From IMG/VR virus record IMGVR_UViG_3300030099_008323, positions 64,001-128,000 of that record: a stretch of DNA of 64,000 nt. One strand, given 5' to 3'. The stretch's first letter is position 1. Each line of letters opens with the position of its first letter. This document shows, in pieces, positions 49,740 through 64,000 of this stretch. A model generated the notes under the pieces. It did not search any database, had not been told where the DNA came from, and saw only the letters and a program-made list of their open reading frames with translations. Origin of the DNA: a virus. The translations under genes and the position numbers were made by a program.

Positions 49740-49951
49740 TATTCACTGCCATTGCTGTGAGGATATTCATCATGCTCCTCATATTCTTCTTTAAATTTAA
49801 CCAATGGTGGATTCATGACAAACAATTCTTTATTTTCGCTCACCTTAAAATTAAAATTTTTAAGAACTGGAACAATATCACTTTGTTCTAATAAAGATTT
49901 CTGCAGAGCCATCATAACAGCTCCTAGTGCCTCATCTGATAATTTATACAT
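49739..49951 (-). CDS. Small hypothetical protein (70 aa)
   Basis: Translationally coupled on both sides (overlapping start/stop); plausible amphipathic helix. Confidence 0.65.
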   Translation of the reverse strand: MYKLSDEALGAVMMALQKSLLEQSDIVPVLKNFNFKVSENKELFVMNPPLVKFKEEYEEHDEYPHSNGSE

Positions 49952-50810
49952 TACTTCTCCTTTTTATATTATTTATATAATCTTCTAAATTATGCTTTGT
50001 TTTCCATTTTAATTCTTCCTCACATCTTCTGAAAGGTATAACTGGATCTTTTCTATTACCTTTTTGTTGCTGTATATATTCAATATTATTAGAAAACATA
50101 CGAGCTACTTCTTCAATAGAATGTAAAGAATTACTATCACACAAGCAATATCCATCACCAGAACCATGAATACCTATTTTTTCCAAGCCGCTAACAACGT
50201 CTTGTATATGTGTAAAAAATCTTTTTTGTGTGCCAGGTCTAACAACTTTTAAAGCCTTGCCAGCTTTATATAATTCTTCGAATATACCAATTACAGTAGC
50301 ATACTTGCCATTTGATATTTGTCCGGGACCATATACATTAAAAAAGTATGCAATTGCATATTCTAGTCCAAACCACTCAGAATAGTTCTTAATTAACTCT
50401 ACGTTTTTTGCCTTAACCCAGGAGTACGGAGTTAAATTTTCATCCCTACCGGAATTTCCAAACTTGCTACTTGATCCGCCATATATTAATTTTGAATTGT
50501 TTTTCAAACAATATTTCAATACTTGATATGTCCCATCAACATTGTACTTCCATACTTTATCAATATCTTCAAAACTAGTTGATATTCTAGCATATTCACC
50601 AAGATGATATACAATATCTGCTTTTATACTAACTAAATCTAAAATATTGTTAGTGCTACCGGGAATATGGTTTACCCGTGTGTCAAAGAATAATTGACGT
50701 CCAGTAAAGTAATTATCCAGACAATATATATTATTAGATCTATCAAGTAGAAGTTTTTCAATTAAGGCTGATCCTATAAATCCGGCCCCACCTGTAACTA
50801 ATATATTCAT
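49944..50810 (-). CDS. NAD-dependent epimerase/dehydratase (extended SDR; HldD/GalE-like)
   Basis: ILVTGGAGFIG, YSWVK (YxxxK), FNVYGPGQ. Confidence 0.9.
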   Translation of the reverse strand: MNILVTGGAGFIGSALIEKLLLDRSNNIYCLDNYFTGRQLFFDTRVNHIPGSTNNILDLVSIKADIVYHLGEYARISTSFEDIDKVWKYNVDGTYQVLKYCLKNNSKLIYGGSSSKFGNSGRDENLTPYSWVKAKNVELIKNYSEWFGLEYAIAYFFNVYGPGQISNGKYATVIGIFEELYKAGKALKVVRPGTQKRFFTHIQDVVSGLEKIGIHGSGDGYCLCDSNSLHSIEEVARMFSNNIEYIQQQKGNRKDPVIPFRRCEEELKWKTKHNLEDYINNIKRRSNV

Positions 50811-51172
50811 TAGTCTCCCTTAATTAGTCTATAACTGTCTTCATCGAAATGTTGAGTTGAAAATTCAAATAGCTCTGTATCCTCTAGCGCAATCATTTGA
50901 TGTCTTAGTCCAGTTGGGACGTGAAAATTATCTCCTGGAACTAATATTATTTCTTTAGCGCAATCCAAATCATCATATTTAGAATACTTTACTTTTATTT
51001 TACCAGACTGAACATAAAAAACCTCGTCTTTGATTTTATGATAGTGCCAAGAACATCTCCTATCTTTGACAAAATAAAGTAATTTTCCGCAATATTGTTC
51101 TTTGTTAACAATCCACTTTTCAAAACCCCAGCCTTTAGGCACAAAATGAATCGGTAAAAAACTTCTCATCAT
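50810..51172 (-). CDS. Cupin-fold sugar isomerase-like protein
   Basis: PKGWGFE...SWHYHKIKDEVFYVQSG...HVPTGLRHQM cupin metal motif. Start placed at ATG 51172 after GGGGG. Confidence 0.8.
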   Translation of the reverse strand: MMRSFLPIHFVPKGWGFEKWIVNKEQYCGKLLYFVKDRRCSWHYHKIKDEVFYVQSGKIKVKYSKYDDLDCAKEIILVPGDNFHVPTGLRHQMIALEDTELFEFSTQHFDEDSYRLIKGD

Positions 51173-51479
51173 TAACCCCCTTATCATCAACATAATAATC
51201 TGCAGCTGGTTTTCCTAAAAACAACTGATGATATTTGCATCCCCACTCACCAAGCTGCTTTGCAGTTAAAACATAAAAATCTTGTATTGCTTTTTGAGCA
51301 TTGTTATCATGCCTGCCCATACCGCGAGCTGTCATATAGATAATTTTATGGCCATCATCATACAAAGAATTAATAAAACTAATTCTATCTCTCATAGGCT
51401 CCGACAATAAATAATTGCCACCACTCAGCTCACACTGTTTAGTACAAATAGTGCCATCAATATCAAATACATATGTCAT
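51135..51479 (-). CDS. HAD-family phosphatase (capsule biosynthesis phosphatase type)
   Basis: YVFDIDGTI motif I, YMTARG motif II, GKPAAD.YVDDK motifs III/IV. Confidence 0.85.
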   Translation of the reverse strand: MTYVFDIDGTICTKQCELSGGNYLLSEPMRDRISFINSLYDDGHKIIYMTARGMGRHDNNAQKAIQDFYVLTAKQLGEWGCKYHQLFLGKPAADYYVDDKGVNDEKFFTDSFCA

Positions 51480-51856
51480 TTTTTCTCCAATGCCTTAGTT
51501 GTTGAATACCCATCAATATACCCAAAGATCTTAACCCTAGCAATATCTTTTCCAACAACTTCTTCTGGTTTGTAATCTCCACCTTTTACAATTATATCAG
51601 GCTTTAGCTTTTTAATTAAGTTATAAGGTGTATCTTCTTCAAAAATTACAACCCCATCAACATATTTACAAGACTCAAGCATAAATTTTCTATCCTCTGC
51701 AGAAAAAATTGGCCTTGAGGATCCTTTGAGATTTTTGACACTCTCATCGCTGTTGATACCAACTATTACGTCCCCCAAGCTTTTACAATATCTTAAAAGC
51801 TCAAAATGTCCTCTGTGTAACACGTCGAAACAACCATTAGTAAAAACAACACTCAT
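51476..51856 (-). CDS. Nucleotidyltransferase, RfaE/HldE domain II-like (cytidylyltransferase fold)
   Basis: TNGCFDVLHRGH, VGINSDESV..LKG..RP, KGGDY, GYSTT. Confidence 0.9.
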   Translation of the reverse strand: MSVVFTNGCFDVLHRGHFELLRYCKSLGDVIVGINSDESVKNLKGSSRPIFSAEDRKFMLESCKYVDGVVIFEEDTPYNLIKKLKPDIIVKGGDYKPEEVVGKDIARVKIFGYIDGYSTTKALEKK

Positions 51857-52584
51857 ACCGTACTAACTCCTCTTTTCTGCACAACAGCTGTGGCGCATTG
51901 ATTAGCAAAGTTAATTGATTGCTCTATGTTCGATGTCTCTACAAATTTAACCACCAAGGCAGATATAAATGTATCGCCTGCTCCAGATGAATCTTTAATC
52001 TCAACCTCTGGCACTGGATATAAAACATTAAGATGCTTACATCCATCTCTACTCATTGTCACAATTAGTTTGTCTTTTATATCATTAGATATAGTGTGCT
52101 TTGTCTTTTCATATTCAGTGTTGTTAATTTTTATATATTTAACATGCTCACACCAATCACCTAATATTTTTTTTGTGTCCAGGAACACACAATCATGTTT
52201 TAAAGAGATGTTTTTTATATCGTCTTCAGATAAAAATCCTTTGTTATAATCAGAAATTATAACAGCATCATAGTTGTCAAAAGATATATTATTAATGTTA
52301 GATCTTCCATATTGTTTGTCATTTTCATCAACTCTCATAAACATATGGTTCATATTAAAATCTATATATCTAGTCTTTGTAATCCCCTTCCAATTTTCAT
52401 TGGTAAGCAAATTAGCTTTAGCTCCTAATGAAGAAACATTTCTGTATACATTTCTTGCCATACCACCATTATCAACTGATTTTACAGGATTAAAAACAGG
52501 CACTGGAGCTTCAGGGCATAATCGATTACATTCGCCATAAATAAAAACGTCCCTACAGCTCTCTCCGATAACTAATATCTTCAC
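51853..52584 (-). CDS. PfkB-family sugar kinase, RfaE/HldE domain I-like
   Basis: IGES..D.F.YG...RLCPEAPVPV, SDYNKG, DSSGAGDTF. Start placed at GTG 52584 after GAGG. Confidence 0.88.
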   Translation of the reverse strand: MKILVIGESCRDVFIYGECNRLCPEAPVPVFNPVKSVDNGGMARNVYRNVSSLGAKANLLTNENWKGITKTRYIDFNMNHMFMRVDENDKQYGRSNINNISFDNYDAVIISDYNKGFLSEDDIKNISLKHDCVFLDTKKILGDWCEHVKYIKINNTEYEKTKHTISNDIKDKLIVTMSRDGCKHLNVLYPVPEVEIKDSSGAGDTFISALVVKFVETSNIEQSINFANQCATAVVQKRGVSTV

Positions 52585-52585
52585 T

Positions 52586-53746
52586 CTAGCCTCTAACAAC
52601 ATCGCATATGTGTTTTATTTCTTCAAATGTCAACTCAGGATAATTTGGTAAGAAAAAACCGTTTGAGTGTATCTTATTACTCATTCGGTCATTAAACCTA
52701 CCGTACCTTTCATACCAAAAAGGATGCAAGCCTAGATTTCCTGCACTGAATATTCTAGTCTCTACACCATTTTCTACCAGTCTTTCTACTATCTGCTGCC
52801 TATGTTGATTACTCTCAGCCAAAGCACCAAAGGAGATTGACACAGGTTTGTTATTAAACCAATTTTGATACTGTACATATCCGTCCAAAAGGCGCGCATA
52901 TTCTAAATGATTCTCATATCTTCTTTGTGTTGCCCAGTCAGCTTTCTTAACTTGTCTAATTCCTAAAAATGCCTGTAAGTCAGTTGACCTTAAATTAAAA
53001 CCAGGCACAAAAAATGTAAAAGGCTTATGAAAATCATCAACCCTATATTTCTTAATTAAGCGACCATATTCTTTCTCATCTAGATCTTTTGCCCAACCAT
53101 GGCTGCGCAGCATAAGCAGCATATCGTATAGCTCTTTATCATCTGTATTCACCATACCGCCCTCAATAGTTGAAAGCTGGTGGCCAAAATAAAACGAAAA
53201 CGAAGACATATCGCCAATTGTACCAACCTTGCTGCCATCTTCATACTCTGCGCCTAAAGCAGCACATGCATCTTCCAATAAACAAAAGCCATATTTTTCT
53301 TTGAGTTGTAGCAATTTCTCCTTATAATGTGGCACTCCTAATACCTGCACATATATTACAGCGTCAGGCTTTTCAGTCTTGCAAATAAATTCTAACTGGT
53401 CTAGATCAATACCAAAGGTTTCTTCATCAGCACCAACCATAATTGGCTTAAGCCCAAGTTGAATCGCTGGTGATATTGTTGTGACCCAGCCAACCGAAGG
53501 CACAGCAATTTTTTTATTCTTTATTCTGCCAGACATTAAAGCGGCCGCAACCATCAAGAGATTTGCTGAAGATCCAGAATTATTAAAAACTGCATAATCA
53601 GTGCCAATAAATTCAGCCCAATCTTTTTCTACCTGCCAAGTCAGCTCACCCTTTGTAAGTCTAGGATAGCTTTTTAACCATGTACACAGTGCATCGATAT
53701 CTTCATCATTAATTGTTTCTTTAGCTAGGGGATATTTAATGTCCAT
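52586..53746 (-). CDS. PLP/PMP-dependent NDP-4-keto-6-deoxyhexose 3-dehydratase-like (ColD/E1 subgroup of the DegT/DnrJ family)
   Basis: NSGSSANLL, LLEDAC and SFYFGHQLSTIEGG, with His at the position of the usual PLP lysine. Confidence 0.8.
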   Translation of the reverse strand: MDIKYPLAKETINDEDIDALCTWLKSYPRLTKGELTWQVEKDWAEFIGTDYAVFNNSGSSANLLMVAAALMSGRIKNKKIAVPSVGWVTTISPAIQLGLKPIMVGADEETFGIDLDQLEFICKTEKPDAVIYVQVLGVPHYKEKLLQLKEKYGFCLLEDACAALGAEYEDGSKVGTIGDMSSFSFYFGHQLSTIEGGMVNTDDKELYDMLLMLRSHGWAKDLDEKEYGRLIKKYRVDDFHKPFTFFVPGFNLRSTDLQAFLGIRQVKKADWATQRRYENHLEYARLLDGYVQYQNWFNNKPVSISFGALAESNQHRQQIVERLVENGVETRIFSAGNLGLHPFWYERYGRFNDRMSNKIHSNGFFLPNYPELTFEEIKHICDVVRG

Positions 53747-59939: not shown

Positions 59940-61808
59940 TTATTCCATCGATTCGCTAACATTAAAAATACTAGGCATTGGTGGATCCTCAGAAATAGGC
60001 AGAGGCTCTACAATCATATTTTCATAAAATTCTTCTCTAGGAAGATAAGGGTACATATCCTCTACTGGAGTACTCCAGCCAACTATTTTTGGCTCATATG
60101 TATGGTATTCATGGCAATTAACGTCACAAACCATTGGGCCATCAAACTCTAGAAATTGTCTTATCTTGTCTCTAACTTGTTCATATGTATCCTCTCCAGT
60201 TATAGTCATTGTAGGTACTCCATATGCGTCTGCAATTGCAATGAAGTTTGGCGGCGCATATCCTTTTGGGCCACATGCTTCACTTCTTCCTTCAAAGTTG
60301 ACTTCTTGAAATGCTTTCGTAATTCCGTATATATGATTATTTAAAATAACTGTTTTAAGCTTAATATTGTAATTTAAAAGAGTCTGAAGCTCTTGAATAT
60401 TCATATTAAACCCACCGTCTCCAATAACACAAACAACATTTTGATCTTCGCTAGCAGCGAATACGCCTCCCATTGCTCCAGCAAAAGAAAAGCCCATAGG
60501 TGAATTTCCGTTATTTGTATAATATCTTTGACCGGTCTTTGTTTTAAAAGCGTGGTTCAACACAACAATATTACCGCCACAGTCTCCTACCAACACATCA
60601 TTGGATTTCATTTCCTCTGACAATATTCTTGCAAAAGCATATGGATGAACAGAGTCACCCTCCTTAAACATATCTTCCGTGACAGGATCATACTTCTCCT
60701 TCCAATCTTTTACTTTAGTCATCCACTTAGAGAAGTCTGGCAAATAAGAGCCGGCAGTAGAGTTATTGCAATATGCTAGCCTTTCTCTTAAGAGCTTTAT
60801 AAAAAGCTTAGCATCTGAATGAATACACTCATCGAATGGAAGCTGCTGCCATTTTTTAACTAAATTAGCTTTGTCAATGTCAACCATATATTTTTTTGCT
60901 TCTCTAGCAAAAGTACTAGGCTCACCGCCAGTTATCCTACCAGATATTCTACTTCCAATAGCTAATATTAAATCAGAATTCTGTATACCAAAATTTCTTC
61001 CAGCGCCGCCGTATGTGCCGATTCTACCACCATAATATTCAAAATCAGAACAAACTATGTCAAGAGCGTTCCAAGTTGGAAAACAGGGTATCTGTAGTTC
61101 TCTAGCTAACTCCATAAAATCTTCATTTGCATCAGCAAGGCCCACGCCTGCTCCAATCATCAAGCAAGGCCTTTCAGAGTTTTTTAAATCTTCTATAAAC
61201 TTATCAATCTGAAAATTAATCTTGTCGACATTAAAAACTGGCTGGTTAATCTCTTTGTTGTAAGACCTAAGAGAATCAACCTCAACTTCCATTTTTGCCA
61301 CATCAATTGGTAAATCAATTAGTACAGGGCCCGGTCGTCCAGTAGTTGCAATGTGAATTGCCTTTTCCAGCTCATACCTGATGTCCTCTGGGTTTTCTAC
61401 TAGTTTAGCATATTTTGTAATTGGTTCTACAATACTGACTATATCAGTCTCTTGAAATCCTATTTGCCTAATTGACTCATCAGGTCGCATGTATTGCGTC
61501 TTGATTTGACCAGTGATAAATACACATGGAACTGTATCATAAAAACAATTGCCAATTGGTGTTACAAAGTTCATACCACCAGGACCACTGGTTGCAATAG
61601 ACACGCCATATTTTCCAGAAACCTTTGCATAGCCCTCTGCGGCAAAGCCACCAGCTTGCTCATGCATAACAGCAATATATCTGGTTTTATCATTTCTGGT
61701 GAACGCATCAATCAAATGACCATTAGCTGCTCCATAAACTACAAAAACTTCTTTTATACCATCTTCTGCTAAGTGATCAATAACATAATCAGCAACTTTT
61801 TTTTTCAT
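59940..61808 (-). CDS. ThDP-dependent acetolactate-synthase-like enzyme (YerE-like subgroup suspected)
   Basis: HEQAGGFAAEGYAK, TSGPG, GRPGPVLIDLP and GDGGF..NIQEL...LNN ThDP motif. IRQIGFQE stands where housekeeping AHAS has GTDAFQE. Confidence 0.85.
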   Translation of the reverse strand: MKKKVADYVIDHLAEDGIKEVFVVYGAANGHLIDAFTRNDKTRYIAVMHEQAGGFAAEGYAKVSGKYGVSIATSGPGGMNFVTPIGNCFYDTVPCVFITGQIKTQYMRPDESIRQIGFQETDIVSIVEPITKYAKLVENPEDIRYELEKAIHIATTGRPGPVLIDLPIDVAKMEVEVDSLRSYNKEINQPVFNVDKINFQIDKFIEDLKNSERPCLMIGAGVGLADANEDFMELARELQIPCFPTWNALDIVCSDFEYYGGRIGTYGGAGRNFGIQNSDLILAIGSRISGRITGGEPSTFAREAKKYMVDIDKANLVKKWQQLPFDECIHSDAKLFIKLLRERLAYCNNSTAGSYLPDFSKWMTKVKDWKEKYDPVTEDMFKEGDSVHPYAFARILSEEMKSNDVLVGDCGGNIVVLNHAFKTKTGQRYYTNNGNSPMGFSFAGAMGGVFAASEDQNVVCVIGDGGFNMNIQELQTLLNYNIKLKTVILNNHIYGITKAFQEVNFEGRSEACGPKGYAPPNFIAIADAYGVPTMTITGEDTYEQVRDKIRQFLEFDGPMVCDVNCHEYHTYEPKIVGWSTPVEDMYPYLPREEFYENMIVEPLPISEDPPMPSIFNVSESME

Positions 61809-61887: not shown

Positions 61888-62826
61888 CTACTTTTTTTTT
61901 ACTGTAGTTGTTTCAGGGGTGGCGCTATGATTCGTTGGAAAGCCCTGATCAGTCTCATAAACAACCTCATCGTGCTTCCAATTACCACCACCTAAGAGCT
62001 TCTCTAGTTCTTCCTCTTTAATAGCATAAAAGTTCTCTTCTGAGGGAAACTCACCAGACCTAACCTCCTCTGCATACTTAGTTAAAGCAGATTGCATCAT
62101 CTGGCCGGCCTCACAATATCTTTTAACAAACTTTGATTTAAATTCCCAAAACAAACCCATTAGATCATGAAAGATTACTAATTGGCCATCAACTTTATCT
62201 CCTGCGCCAATACCATAAACAGGAATATTAAGCTCGCTAGCAATCATATCAGCTGACTCGCGGGGCATGCCCTCTAACAATAGAAAAGAGCAGCCGGCTT
62301 CTTGTAGTTCTAGAGCTTGCTGGAGGATAATTTCAGCTTGTTTAGCTGTTTTTCCCTGCACTCTATAGCCGCCTAGCTTTGCTCTGGTGTGAGGTGTAAG
62401 GCCTAAGTGGCTCATAACCATAATACCAGCATCTGCAATTGCTCTAATTCTCTCAGTCATTGCACCTTCGACTTTAACACAGTCCATACCAGCTCGAACA
62501 AAACGACCAGCATTATGAACTGCTTCTTCATTAGATATCTGATATGACATATAAGGCATATCACCAATTAAAAATGCGTTTTTAGCACCTTTCGAGACTG
62601 CCTCACACGAACTAATCATTTGGTCCATACTAACAGGAATAGTTGTCTTATAACCTAATGTAGTCATGCCCAAAGAGTCGCCTACCAAAATACAGTCTAC
62701 ACCTGCACCATCAGCGATTCTAGCTTGCGGGTAATCATAAGCTGTAGTAAGAACAGTTTTTGTATTTTCTCTCTTGTGTCTTCTCAATCTGAGAATAGTT
62801 ACTTTATTTTTATCATCTGCTGGCAT
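61888..62826 (-). CDS. panB: 3-methyl-2-oxobutanoate hydroxymethyltransferase (PanB family)
   Basis: TAYD, ILVGDSLG, GDMP, VKVEG, HLGLTP, GIGAG..DGQ.LV.HDL.G; SD AGGAG. Confidence 0.92.
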   Translation of the reverse strand: MPADDKNKVTILRLRRHKRENTKTVLTTAYDYPQARIADGAGVDCILVGDSLGMTTLGYKTTIPVSMDQMISSCEAVSKGAKNAFLIGDMPYMSYQISNEEAVHNAGRFVRAGMDCVKVEGAMTERIRAIADAGIMVMSHLGLTPHTRAKLGGYRVQGKTAKQAEIILQQALELQEAGCSFLLLEGMPRESADMIASELNIPVYGIGAGDKVDGQLVIFHDLMGLFWEFKSKFVKRYCEAGQMMQSALTKYAEEVRSGEFPSEENFYAIKEEELEKLLGGGNWKHDEVVYETDQGFPTNHSATPETTTVKKK

Positions 62827-62827
62827 T

Positions 62828-64000
62828 TTAATCTCCTAAAATTTTTCTTTTGAGACTTATTTTAGCAGTCTCAATAACGTTTTGTTCAGCTCTTTTTCCA
62901 AATTTTTCTCTTAAAAGCTGTAAGTATTTTGGATTAGTATGGTATTTTGTCCAGGCTTCATCTCGAAACTTTAAAATTTGTGCAGCCGTAAGACTATCTG
63001 TTGGTAAATTTTGTGTATCGTAAGAATGCTGACTGTAACCAGTATAACTATCCGGCAATTTCATGCCCTTACTTTTTGCTTGTATATATAAAGGACTACC
63101 TGGGTATGCCATAGCTGTATAAAAATTAACCATTTCTGTATTTGACTCCATGGCGAAGTTTAGCGTATATTCTAAAGACTCCATAGTGTCCATAGGTAAT
63201 CCAAAAATATAATTTGCCGCTATGTTTATTCCAGATGATCTCATGTTGTCCATTATATCACCAATCTTAACATCTTTAAAGTTATCTTTATGAACTTCTT
63301 TACGTAAGATTTGGTCTGGATTTTCTATGCCTAGGCCGAGCCAATTAACTCCTGCCTTTTTAAGAGTGTCCAGGTATTTTGGCTTGCAGGTATCAATCCT
63401 AGAATATGCCCAAATATTAAAATCATATTGTCTCTCTATAATCATTTGACATATTTTTTCAAAATGACGAGGGTTTAAAACAAAAAGTTCATCTGCGATC
63501 TTAACGTTTTTAACACCTAGGCTTGCAATATAATCAAATTGATTAATTATAAATTCAGGTGACCAATACCTCCATACGTTACTTTTATCGCTAGCTACTC
63601 CAATTGATGAGTCTGTTCTGTTGATGATGTTAATCATGCAGAAAGAGCATTTATATGGACAACCTAAACTGGTATACAAAGCAGCAAAAGGCTCTTTCTC
63701 TGTATTGTTGGACCATGAATGCCATCCTGCTGTTCTGTACTTTTTTATATCAGGGAGCAAATCCCATGCCATTCCTGGTAAATCTACTTCAAGTTTATTC
63801 TTGGGCACTATTGATTGTGGCTTGTTTAAAACGATGCCTTCTTCTGTCTTGTATCCCAGGCCATCTACTTTTTTTAGCTGCACTTCATCAGAAAAATTAG
63901 TTACTTGAAGAAAATTACTTATTGTATATACACCTTCATTTTGACATATATAGTCAACACAGCTCTCTGATAAGACTTCTCTTGGTAGCGCTGCGACGTG
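62828..64000 (-). CDS. Cobalamin-dependent radical SAM enzyme, 5' end outside window
   Basis: TSLGCPYKCSFC and IADELF...LGIE...YIFGLP.DT motifs. The frame is open from 63883 to 64000 (HVAALPREV..., the B12-binding GxH..ALP tail), so the track start is an internal GTG. Confidence 0.88.
   Translation of the reverse strand, partial: HVAALPREVLSESCVDYICQNEGVYTISNFLQVTNFSDEVQLKKVDGLGYKTEEGIVLNKPQSIVPKNKLEVDLPGMAWDLLPDIKKYRTAGWHSWSNNTEKEPFAALYTSLGCPYKCSFCMINIINRTDSSIGVASDKSNVWRYWSPEFIINQFDYIASLGVKNVKIADELFVLNPRHFEKICQMIIERQYDFNIWAYSRIDTCKPKYLDTLKKAGVNWLGLGIENPDQILRKEVHKDNFKDVKIGDIMDNMRSSGINIAANYIFGLPMDTMESLEYTLNFAMESNTEMVNFYTAMAYPGSPLYIQAKSKGMKLPDSYTGYSQHSYDTQNLPTDSLTAAQILKFRDEAWTKYHTNPKYLQLLREKFGKRAEQNVIETAKISLKRKILGD

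Follow-up and report, generated by a model that had tools for sequence, protein, structure and literature searches.

A viral PanB paired with a YerE-like carboligase in the glycan island of a marine phage, and its probable role in sugar branching

The panB gene described here lies in a stretch of 64,000 nt (hereafter the window), which comprises bases 64001-128000 of the 186,103-bp IMG/VR record IMGVR_UViG_3300030099_008323. The record was rated 100% complete by CheckV, and its source is a complete 186-kb marine phage. The gene encodes a homolog of ketopantoate hydroxymethyltransferase (KPHMT, or PanB); it is located in an island of glycan genes and adjoins the gene of a thiamine diphosphate (ThDP)-dependent enzyme related to the sugar-branching carboligase YerE. 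Based on the gene context and on the residues and predicted fold of the protein, PanB very likely serves a glycan pathway in this phage. As to the mechanism, sequence comparison and the analogy with erwiniose synthesis make it, on balance, probable that PanB replaces the aldolase of the erwiniose type and makes a 4-hydroxy-2-oxoacid, probably ketopantoate, for use by the carboligase.

The phage PanB and its pairing with a ThDP enzyme

The panB open reading frame (ORF) was found to have exactly the bounds listed in Table 1. Its translation matched the whole PF02548 model (positions 1-259 of 259; 330.5 bits, cut-off 28.7) and scored above the cut-offs of two equivalog models, TIGR00222 (282.1 bits, cut-off 207.55) and NF001452 (319.7 bits, cut-off 272). 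It was aligned over ∼260 residues with the PanB proteins of M. tuberculosis (1OY0, E 1.7e-56) and E. coli (1M3U, E 1.4e-54), and it was 40-53% identical to cellular PanBs. In the AlphaFold2 (AF2) model, the mean predicted local distance difference test (pLDDT) score was 73, most of the core blocks exceeded 85 and the barrel core was confident; the top Foldseek match of this model was 1M3U (target-normalised TM-score 0.84, E 1e-24), which indicates a (βα)8 barrel. Residues D45, S46, D84, K112, E114, H136 and E181 (E. coli numbering), the catalytic and metal-binding set of the E. coli and M. tuberculosis enzymes, were kept in the window protein and in 175/175 aligned PanBs. The motifs named in a first-pass annotation of the window, namely VGDSLG (GDS), GDMP, KVEG, HLGLTP, LLEG, SSCEAV and LTPHT, were all present in the translation. 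Judged by score, residues and modelled fold, the gene product is a catalytically intact enzyme of the PanB family.

The substrate pocket was examined at the positions corresponding to L42, I202, I212 and V214 of the E. coli enzyme. These read LILI in the phage clade, which is within the canonical range, and specificity changes towards larger substrates were looked for in the pocket and not found, the residue switches of the clade being located elsewhere; therefore, there is no sign of a pocket opened for a nucleoside diphosphate (NDP)-sugar. Two of these positions, I202 and I212, were mutated by the Clapes group to widen the substrate range of KPHMT (PMC7611260). The C-terminal tail of ∼45 amino acid residues is specific to the phage clade, partly conserved and predicted to be disordered.

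Gene neighborhoods were compared in 80 IMG/VR viral loci and 80 loci of species-representative genomes, all searched with the window proteins. An acetolactate synthase (ALS)-like ThDP gene directly adjoined panB on the same strand in 79/80 viral loci (PanB 68-90% identical), with a median gap of 15 nt between the high-scoring segment pairs, and the sole exception was a contig end with only 331 nt upstream of PanB. By contrast, an adjacent ThDP gene was observed in 0/78 cellular loci with a canonical PanB (43-53% identical), 51 of which were flanked by ≥2.5 kb on either side. A homolog of the DegT/3-dehydratase gene was located no more than 10 kb away in 70/80 viral loci. The surroundings of the viral homologs, a comparison that the first-pass annotation had proposed, point to glycan synthesis. 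Hundreds of PanB variants, 84-99% identical, were present in the protein database, many of them from Tara ocean samples.

Three arrangements of the pair were distinguished. Type I, to which the window belongs, has a B12-binding radical S-adenosylmethionine (SAM) enzyme, PanB and the ThDP enzyme (17 viral loci, the B12-radical SAM gene being found in 14). In type II (61 viral loci) the order is ThDP enzyme, PanB, short-chain dehydrogenase/reductase (SDR), E1-type dehydratase and 4,6-dehydratase-like SDR. Type III, with PanB, ThDP enzyme and split transketolase, was represented by one viral locus and one contig of a Prochlorococcus single-cell assembly; in that arrangement (L097:2898-4633), PanB and a JanthE-like ThDP enzyme were accompanied by the N and C halves of a transketolase as separate genes, and the split transketolase type is listed in a 2025 review as a suspected second sugar-branching system. 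The PanB-ThDP pair was also observed in two phage-like lineages that are further removed (PanB 59% and 45% identical), as well as in one polysaccharide locus of cellular appearance, which contains a Wzx flippase, a nucleotidyltransferase, a 4,6-dehydratase-like SDR, a DegT protein, the ThDP enzyme, PanB (51% identical) and an SDR. Cultured phage records were rejected as a source of context: tblastn gave 13 matches, most of them resembling host-DNA contamination, and the best one, Microcystis phage MaAM05 (MW495066.1, 255330-272139; locus L009), carries panB with panC and sufBCDS and was uninformative, since the DNA seems either to be cellular or to represent quite another context, one truly of the pantothenate type.

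In the phylogenetic tree, the phage PanBs formed a single clade (SH-aLRT 99) distinct from the sampled cellular PanBs. Within this clade, types I, II and III were intermixed, and at least six changes of type were forced by well-supported branches. Sister PanBs that were 90-96% identical adjoined ThDP enzymes only 30-35% identical to each other. The dN values of PanB ranged from 0.06 to 0.26 with saturated synonymous sites; because of this saturation the NG86 estimate of dN/dS failed for most pairs, and the values obtained, 0.04-0.10, refer to four pairs only. Given the low dN and the near-identical PanBs beside divergent ThDP enzymes, panB is a core gene under strong conservation, and its partners have been exchanged around it.

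The phage cassette was also found on contigs of two Prochlorococcus single-cell assemblies, AG-409-P03 (L098, 130-kb) and AG-670-O13 (L097, 10.7-kb). The 130-kb contig was considered as a host glycan island, and this was ruled out by its gp32-like and UvsX/RecA-like genes, which mark it as a phage genome from an infected cell. These contigs suggest that Prochlorococcus is a host of the wider phage group, and phage contigs filed under Prochlorococcus are a warning of contamination among the species-representative genomes.

The carboligase, the 3-dehydratase and the likely place of PanB

The flanks of panB given in the first-pass annotation were recovered, with the B12-radical SAM enzyme (517 amino acid residues, running off the window end) upstream and the three-domain ThDP enzyme (622 amino acid residues) downstream. 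Among solved structures, the ThDP enzyme scored highest with 8RPH (303.7 bits), followed by 5AHK (272 bits) and plant acetohydroxyacid synthase (AHAS; 240 bits). The identity of 8RPH as JanthE, a YerE-like enzyme, was confirmed. The structure 5AHK, whose PDB title reads "acetolactate synthase II", is taken here to be PpYerE, the YerE of Pseudomonas protegens, and is said to originate from the work of Hampel et al. in 2018. The ALS model TIGR00118 gave 382, below its cut-off of 538. An FQE..FEGR segment was common to the window enzyme and 5AHK, with Phe at the position of AHAS Trp574 (A. thaliana W574), the residue of acceptor specificity; a C-terminal extension was shared with JanthE and lacking in AHAS. 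When the genome was searched for an ALS small subunit (ALS_ss_C), no match was obtained. The ThDP partners of all three types placed JanthE first, with 5AHK at or above the level of AHAS. By this ranking, the ThDP neighbor appears to be a YerE-like carboligase and not an AHAS.

The DegT-family protein of the island gave its best PDB matches with ColD/WbdK (2GMS, 188 bits) and 3GR9, and 216 bits with PF01041. It has His at the position of ColD His188, where aminotransferases have Lys, and is therefore assigned as a 3-dehydratase dependent on pyridoxamine 5'-phosphate (PMP) and not as an aminotransferase. The DegT protein of type II was E1-like (3BCX, 338 bits) with the His kept, and the type II loci also had an SDR resembling dTDP-glucose-4,6-dehydratase (297 bits, below the cut-off of 365). 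Together, the ThDP enzyme and the 3-dehydratase would be the enzymes for making an NDP-3,6-dideoxy-4-keto sugar and branching it at C4, as in yersiniose synthesis. Aldolases of the HpaI type (PF03328) and of the BphI/ErwI type (PF00682) were searched for in the phage genome without a match; thus, PanB is the only candidate for a donor-extension step.

A contribution of PanB, with or without the ALS-like enzyme, to the pantothenate and coenzyme A (CoA) supply of the host during infection, with its position in the glycan cluster being incidental, was weighed against these results. Such a role would agree with the equivalog scores and the intact active site of PanB, and phages often duplicate rate-limiting host enzymes. 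It is also how viral panB has been taken in viromics: in the virome of an ocean oxygen-minimum zone (Eastern Tropical North Pacific, ETNP), "pantoate transferase" was the most abundant vitamin-related auxiliary gene and was interpreted as a CoA boost (PMC8940887), and panB of the Ostreococcus viruses OlV7 and OtV-2 was described as a vitamin-B5 auxiliary metabolic gene (PMC6851583). However, PanC, PanD, ApbA/PanE, IlvC and IlvD were searched for in the whole 186-kb genome and none was found, so that the absence of panC, panD and panE first noticed in the window holds for the full record and extends to IlvC, IlvD and the ALS small subunit. The YerE-like neighbor is near-universal and on the same strand in three gene arrangements, the ThDP enzyme does not reach the ALS cut-off and has Phe in place of the Trp of AHAS, and several residues invariant in canonical PanBs are switched in the phage clade. 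Moreover, one Prochlorococcus single-cell assembly with a contig carrying phage-type panB (81% identical to that of the window) also has its own canonical PanB, which is 40% identical to the phage enzyme; therefore, at least that cell was not short of the function. The proposal of the first-pass annotation that ALS and PanB together boost host pantothenate synthesis is thus poorly supported, with an ALS-like enzyme below cut-off, no small subunit and no other gene of the pathway, and we regard an auxiliary role of this kind as very improbable.

For the role that we favor, namely donor supply to the carboligase, the following steps are proposed. First, PanB would take a free 2-oxoacid of the host, most likely α-ketoisovalerate, and add CH2OH from methylene-tetrahydrofolate to give a 4-hydroxy-2-oxoacid, most likely ketopantoate. 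The YerE/JanthE-like enzyme would then decarboxylate this product to an acyl-anion equivalent and add it to the C4 keto group of the NDP-3,6-dideoxy-4-keto sugar supplied by the ColD-type 3-dehydratase. The branch ketone would be reduced by an SDR in the manner of YerF, and soluble glycosyltransferases would finally place the sugar on a cytoplasmic target, most likely virion proteins; a cytoplasmic target is assumed because no export genes were found. The substrate, the order of the steps, the product and the glycosylation target are those that we infer from the evidence set out here. In particular, one small substrate common to all types, a free 2-oxoacid, is expected because the pocket is unchanged, the module types are intermixed and near-identical PanBs stand beside highly divergent ThDP enzymes. 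E. coli PanB reportedly does not use pyruvate (Powers and Snell, in 1976), which is part of the basis for ketopantoate as the likeliest donor. The E. coli enzyme makes 3-substituted 4-hydroxy-2-oxoacids from many 2-oxoacids (PMC7611260). For erwiniose, the 4-hydroxy-2-oxoacid is formed first, by an aldolase encoded in the cluster, and is then used as the donor by the YerE-like ErwE; ErwE accepts 4-hydroxy-2-oxobutanoate and rejects pyruvate (PMC9306805).

The first-pass annotation had also linked PanB to the adjacent ThDP enzyme in branched-sugar chemistry, but in the opposite order, with PanB acting on the branch that the ThDP enzyme had installed. The functional tie is borne out by the pairing in the viral and cellular loci, the YerE/JanthE-like neighbor and the ColD-type dehydratase, and the order is probably reversed. 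In that order, the YerE-like enzyme would use pyruvate to acetylate C4 of the NDP-keto sugar, and PanB would hydroxymethylate the methyl group beside the ketone so formed, the branch becoming 3-hydroxypropanoyl. This is equally compatible with the pairing of the genes and with the identities of the partners, YpYerE itself prefers pyruvate (PMC12247030), and the clade-specific loop His146/Thr147/Arg148 brings positive charge near the active site, which could hold the NDP group. Yet the 2-oxoacid and Mg ligands and the small hydrophobic pocket of PanB are unchanged, and PanBs of near identity serve highly divergent ThDP partners and either ColD-type or E1-type dehydratases. These two dehydratase types are expected to act on different NDP-sugars (GDP- and CDP-, respectively, as inferred from the PDB names), which fits poorly with recognition of the sugar by PanB, and the experimentally studied erwiniose pathway extends the donor first with a carboligase that rejects pyruvate (PMC9306805). 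Because of the pocket for small 2-oxoacids, the divergent partners and dehydratases and the erwiniose precedent, PanB is placed before the ThDP enzyme, and the acetyl-first order is considered rather unlikely.

Another role in the glycan was considered, in which the PanB product is reduced to pantoate and serves as an acyl or ester decoration, or in which PanB hydroxymethylates C3 of a 3-deoxy-2-ulosonic acid resembling 3-deoxy-D-manno-octulosonic acid (KDO) or sialic acid. In favor of this, an SDR invariably lies close by, 3-deoxy-2-ulosonic acids are in chemical terms 2-oxoacids that have a β-CH2 group, and some type II loci (L006/L008) have a CMP-ulosonic-acid synthetase-like gene and a weakly sialyltransferase-like gene. 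These ulosonic-acid genes are absent, however, from the window cluster and from L007; the conserved core contains no acyl-activating enzyme (ligase or ATP-grasp), and only the ThDP carboligase is invariably adjacent to PanB. Such a role is therefore decidedly unlikely.

Several observations weigh against the donor-supply role or against a simple form of it, and the first of these are the residue switches of the phage clade. Residues were counted in 92 phage-clade and 82 canonical PanBs (E. coli numbering). Position 142 was His in 88/92 phage-clade proteins and Gln in 82/82 canonical ones, position 166 was Gln in 92/92 and Asp in 81/82, and position 227 was Ser in 90/92 and Pro in 81/82, respectively; V144R was found in the phage clade at a position that varies among canonical PanBs. 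The change from Gln142 to His, limited to the main marine clade, shows that the replacement of LTPQS by LTPHT remarked on in the first-pass annotation is a true clade-wide switch. The His-Thr-Arg loop (residues 146-148 in window numbering) comes after the catalytic His and is of low confidence in the AF2 model, and the new positive charge of His146 and Arg148 could bind an NDP-sugar phosphate or a different one-carbon (C1) donor. Secondly, the cellular locus with the PanB-ThDP pair (L012) was placed on the canonical side of the PanB tree on a long branch, so that the pairing may have originated repeatedly. Thirdly, the two SDRs of the island (315 and 288 amino acid residues) gave weak scores with several models, and the YerF-like reductase and the 4,6-dehydratase of the window cluster did not stand out from these scores. 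Ketopantoate would, furthermore, be a hindered (neopentyl) donor, and no YerE-like enzyme is known to accept it. No paper on PanB in an O-antigen or branched-sugar context or in cyanophages was found in the literature covered, which did not include the survey of >200 YerE-like clusters by Krug et al. (2024, Angew e202403535).

Other changes in the phage clade were also recorded. Ser143 was replaced by Thr and Gly135 by Ser, and the change from Asp166 to Gln was also seen in the distant phage lineages and not in the cellular PanB-ThDP locus. At the position of E. coli His68, Ser was found in 53, His in 31 and Ala in 7 phage-clade proteins, as against His in 75/82 canonical ones; M. tuberculosis PanB also lacks His here. 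The other oddity of the first-pass annotation, the Ser of SSCEAV in place of the helix His, is thus the commonest state of the phage clade, but the position is merely relaxed, with His still present in those 31 proteins.

The glycan island and its variation

The PanB island comprises ∼24 co-oriented genes for sugar activation, tailoring and transfer, which extend from window position 49944 to ∼7.3 kb beyond the window end and adjoin late and tail genes (Table 1). In the order of transcription, it starts with two GT4 and one GT2 glycosyltransferases, two small unknown proteins, a LicD-like protein, a SAM methyltransferase and the SDR of 315 amino acid residues. The middle part consists of the B12-radical SAM enzyme, PanB, the ThDP enzyme, a GT47-like protein and a radical SAM/SPASM enzyme, followed by two unknown paralogues, an RmlC-like epimerase, two unknown proteins and the DegT-family protein. 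At its end, the island has an HldE-like kinase and adenylyltransferase, a phosphatase like those of the haloacid dehalogenase (HAD) family, a cupin and the SDR of 288 amino acid residues. The window also contains a baseplate wedge gene, a DNA primase gene and a late-sigma-like gene; the closest cultured relatives of the baseplate protein were only ∼31% identical.

Table 1. Features of the glycan island located within the window, in order of position.
Feature	Position	Strand	Basis
Sugar activation block: HldE-like kinase (249 aa), HldE-like adenylyltransferase (126 aa), HAD-like phosphatase (114 aa), cupin (127 aa), SDR (288 aa)	49944..52602	minus	Pfam and NCBIfam
Predicted ColD-type PMP-dependent NDP-4-keto-6-deoxyhexose 3-dehydratase (DegT family), 386 aa	52586..53746	minus	2GMS, PF01041
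Two proteins, 337 and 225 aa	53748..55454	minus	no family match (Pfam, NCBIfam)
RmlC-like sugar 3,5-epimerase (cupin), 170 aa	55397..55909	minus	PF00908 133.5 bits; TIGR01221 114.5 bits, below cut-off
Two adjacent proteins, 325 and 316 aa	55906..57840	minus	no Pfam/NCBIfam match
Radical SAM/SPASM enzyme, 398 aa	57837..59033	minus	PF04055 66 bits, PF13186 24 bits
GT47/RXYLT1-like putative glycosyltransferase, 304 aa	59023..59937	minus	PF24785 35 bits, PF03016 26 bits
YerE/JanthE-like ThDP-dependent carboligase (predicted), 622 aa, three-domain	59940..61808	minus	closest structures 8RPH, 5AHK
panB ORF, 312 aa	61888..62826	minus	PF02548, TIGR00222 and NF001452; 1OY0/1M3U alignment; AF2 model
B12-binding radical SAM enzyme, C-terminal 390 of 517 aa in window	62828..64000	minus	PF02310 and PF04055

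The stop codon of the B12-radical SAM gene is 1 nt from the start of PanB, and the gene continues for 381 nt past the window end (full ORF L002:2828-4381, with PF02310 and PF04055). Its best NCBIfam matches, HpnJ (111 bits) and the PhpK type (81 bits), were both far below cut-off, and a search among solved structures for a close relative found none. Across the type I loci, the GT47-like protein was kept at 52-70% identity and the SPASM enzyme at 64-77%. The proteins of 325 and 316 amino acid residues were also conserved in these loci and are probably tandem paralogues, since both match the same target positions in related loci. The proteins of 337 and 225 amino acid residues showed no hydrophobic stretch above the threshold for a transmembrane-like segment.

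The distal end of the island has a split HldE-like pair, and its SDR is weakly similar to heptose 6-epimerase. In this activation block, the kinase and the adenylyltransferase gave 120 bits with rfaE_dom_I and 152 bits with rfaE_dom_II, both below cut-off, and the heptose-epimerase model gave 77 bits. Because of the HldE-like pair and this SDR, the base sugar to be branched may be a heptose and not a hexose.

The purpose of the island was examined further. Its enzymes are those of NDP-sugar tailoring together with glycosyltransferases, which lends no support to DNA hypermodification. A lipid-linked, exported polysaccharide was rejected as well: searches of the genome for a Wzx flippase and a Bac_transf initiating transferase gave none, and the scan of the island for membrane proteins gave no convincing one, the only marginal hydrophobic stretch being in the SDR of 315 amino acid residues. 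Use of the export machinery of the host for the glycan is possible. At window positions 7923-48148, the structural region was found to contain several very large ORFs in succession (3752, 1990, 1788, 1337, 1262 and 1181 amino acid residues), which share the strand of the glycan island; these ORFs are possible glycan carriers if virion proteins are the target.

The surroundings of the pair varied among related phages. In two loci with PanBs 91-92% identical to that of the window (L005:1633-4528 and L003:274-1477), phosphonate-type genes, namely a cytidylyltransferase-PEP mutase fusion, a split ThDP decarboxylase and an Fe-alcohol dehydrogenase, were located just upstream of the block of SDR, B12-radical SAM and PanB genes. 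The window phage has a methyltransferase and the LicD-like gene at this place, which shows that cassettes are swapped here, and decoration of the glycan with phosphonate is possible in the two phages concerned, as their gene content suggests. In the lineage with a PanB of 59% identity (L010:3306-5645), the B12-radical SAM gene encodes 779 amino acid residues, with an intein splicing domain and an HNH endonuclease. In three further loci (L006-L008:1-458), NifU-like and IscA-like Fe-S assembly genes were found upstream of the glycan island at a distance of a few kb; they could serve the Fe-S-dependent E1 dehydratase or the radical SAM enzymes.

Implications and comparison with known systems

If the proposed role is true, the phage protein would be the first of the PanB family to act elsewhere than in pantothenate synthesis, and acyl-branched sugars would be made by a new route, in which a folate-dependent C1 extension stands in place of an aldolase; hindered tertiary alcohols could also be prepared in two biocatalytic steps with PanB and a JanthE-like enzyme. 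The near-constant viral context suggests a glycan gene in this lineage, and the vitamin inferences drawn from viromes would need revision. The constant PanB-carboligase core with its swapped surroundings, in a hypervariable and apparently soluble island, indicates that a surface sugar may be under diversifying selection, with a bearing on the recognition or evasion of hosts. Taken to its full extent, the picture would be that the virions of abundant ocean phages, which probably infect Prochlorococcus, are decorated with an undescribed 3,6-dideoxy sugar (a hexose or possibly a heptose) carrying at C4 a five-carbon 1,3-dihydroxy-2,2-dimethylpropyl ('pantoyl-derived') branch; a valine precursor of the host would be diverted by the virus-specific PanB into the YerE-like carboligase, and in type I the product would be altered further by the B12-radical SAM enzyme. 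This full picture is tentative and we hold it as a possibility; if the pantoyl-branched sugar is true, most of the 'pantothenate' and 'acetolactate synthase' auxiliary genes in marine viromes would be glycan genes.

Among known systems, the pathways of erwiniose, caryophyllose and gastriose (ErwI-ErwE-ErwF, MMAR_2331-2332 and MygI-MyGE-MygF; Steitz et al. 2022, PMC9306805) share with the phage a 3-dehydratase that makes an NDP-3,6-dideoxy-4-keto sugar, a YerE-like carboligase, an enzyme encoded in the cluster for extension of a 2-oxoacid to the γ-hydroxy-2-oxoacid donor, and an SDR. They differ in the extending enzyme, which is a pyruvate aldolase of the HpaI or BphI type there and in the phage would be PanB, a member of the phosphoenolpyruvate (PEP)-mutase/isocitrate-lyase superfamily that uses methylene-tetrahydrofolate as the source of C1. 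The branch predicted for the phage has a terminal CH2OH group and is probably gem-dimethyl, and the setting is a phage with neither a flippase nor a lipid-carrier transferase, to which type I adds the B12-radical SAM enzyme. In yersiniose A synthesis of Yersinia pseudotuberculosis (E1/E3, YerE and YerF), as in the phage, the 3-dehydratase is PMP-dependent and has His in place of Lys, the ThDP enzyme is ALS-like, of the flavin type and directed at a C4 ketone, and there is an SDR. However, YerE takes pyruvate directly and needs no donor-making enzyme, while the phage ThDP enzymes are nearer to JanthE than to 5AHK and the window dehydratase is of the ColD type and not of the E1 type.

Canonical PanB/KPHMT (1M3U, 1OY0, TIGR00222) resembles the phage enzyme in fold, in the metal, catalytic and pocket residues and in a score above the equivalog cut-off. 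The phage PanBs nevertheless form a separate clade with Q142H, D166Q, P227S, V144R and the C-terminal tail, and they were never found beside pan genes and almost always beside a YerE-like gene. The viral panB genes reported previously (PMC8940887; PMC6851583) belong to the same gene family as reported there; in those studies a pantothenate/CoA boost was deduced from annotation alone, whereas the gene context analyzed here leads to a glycan.

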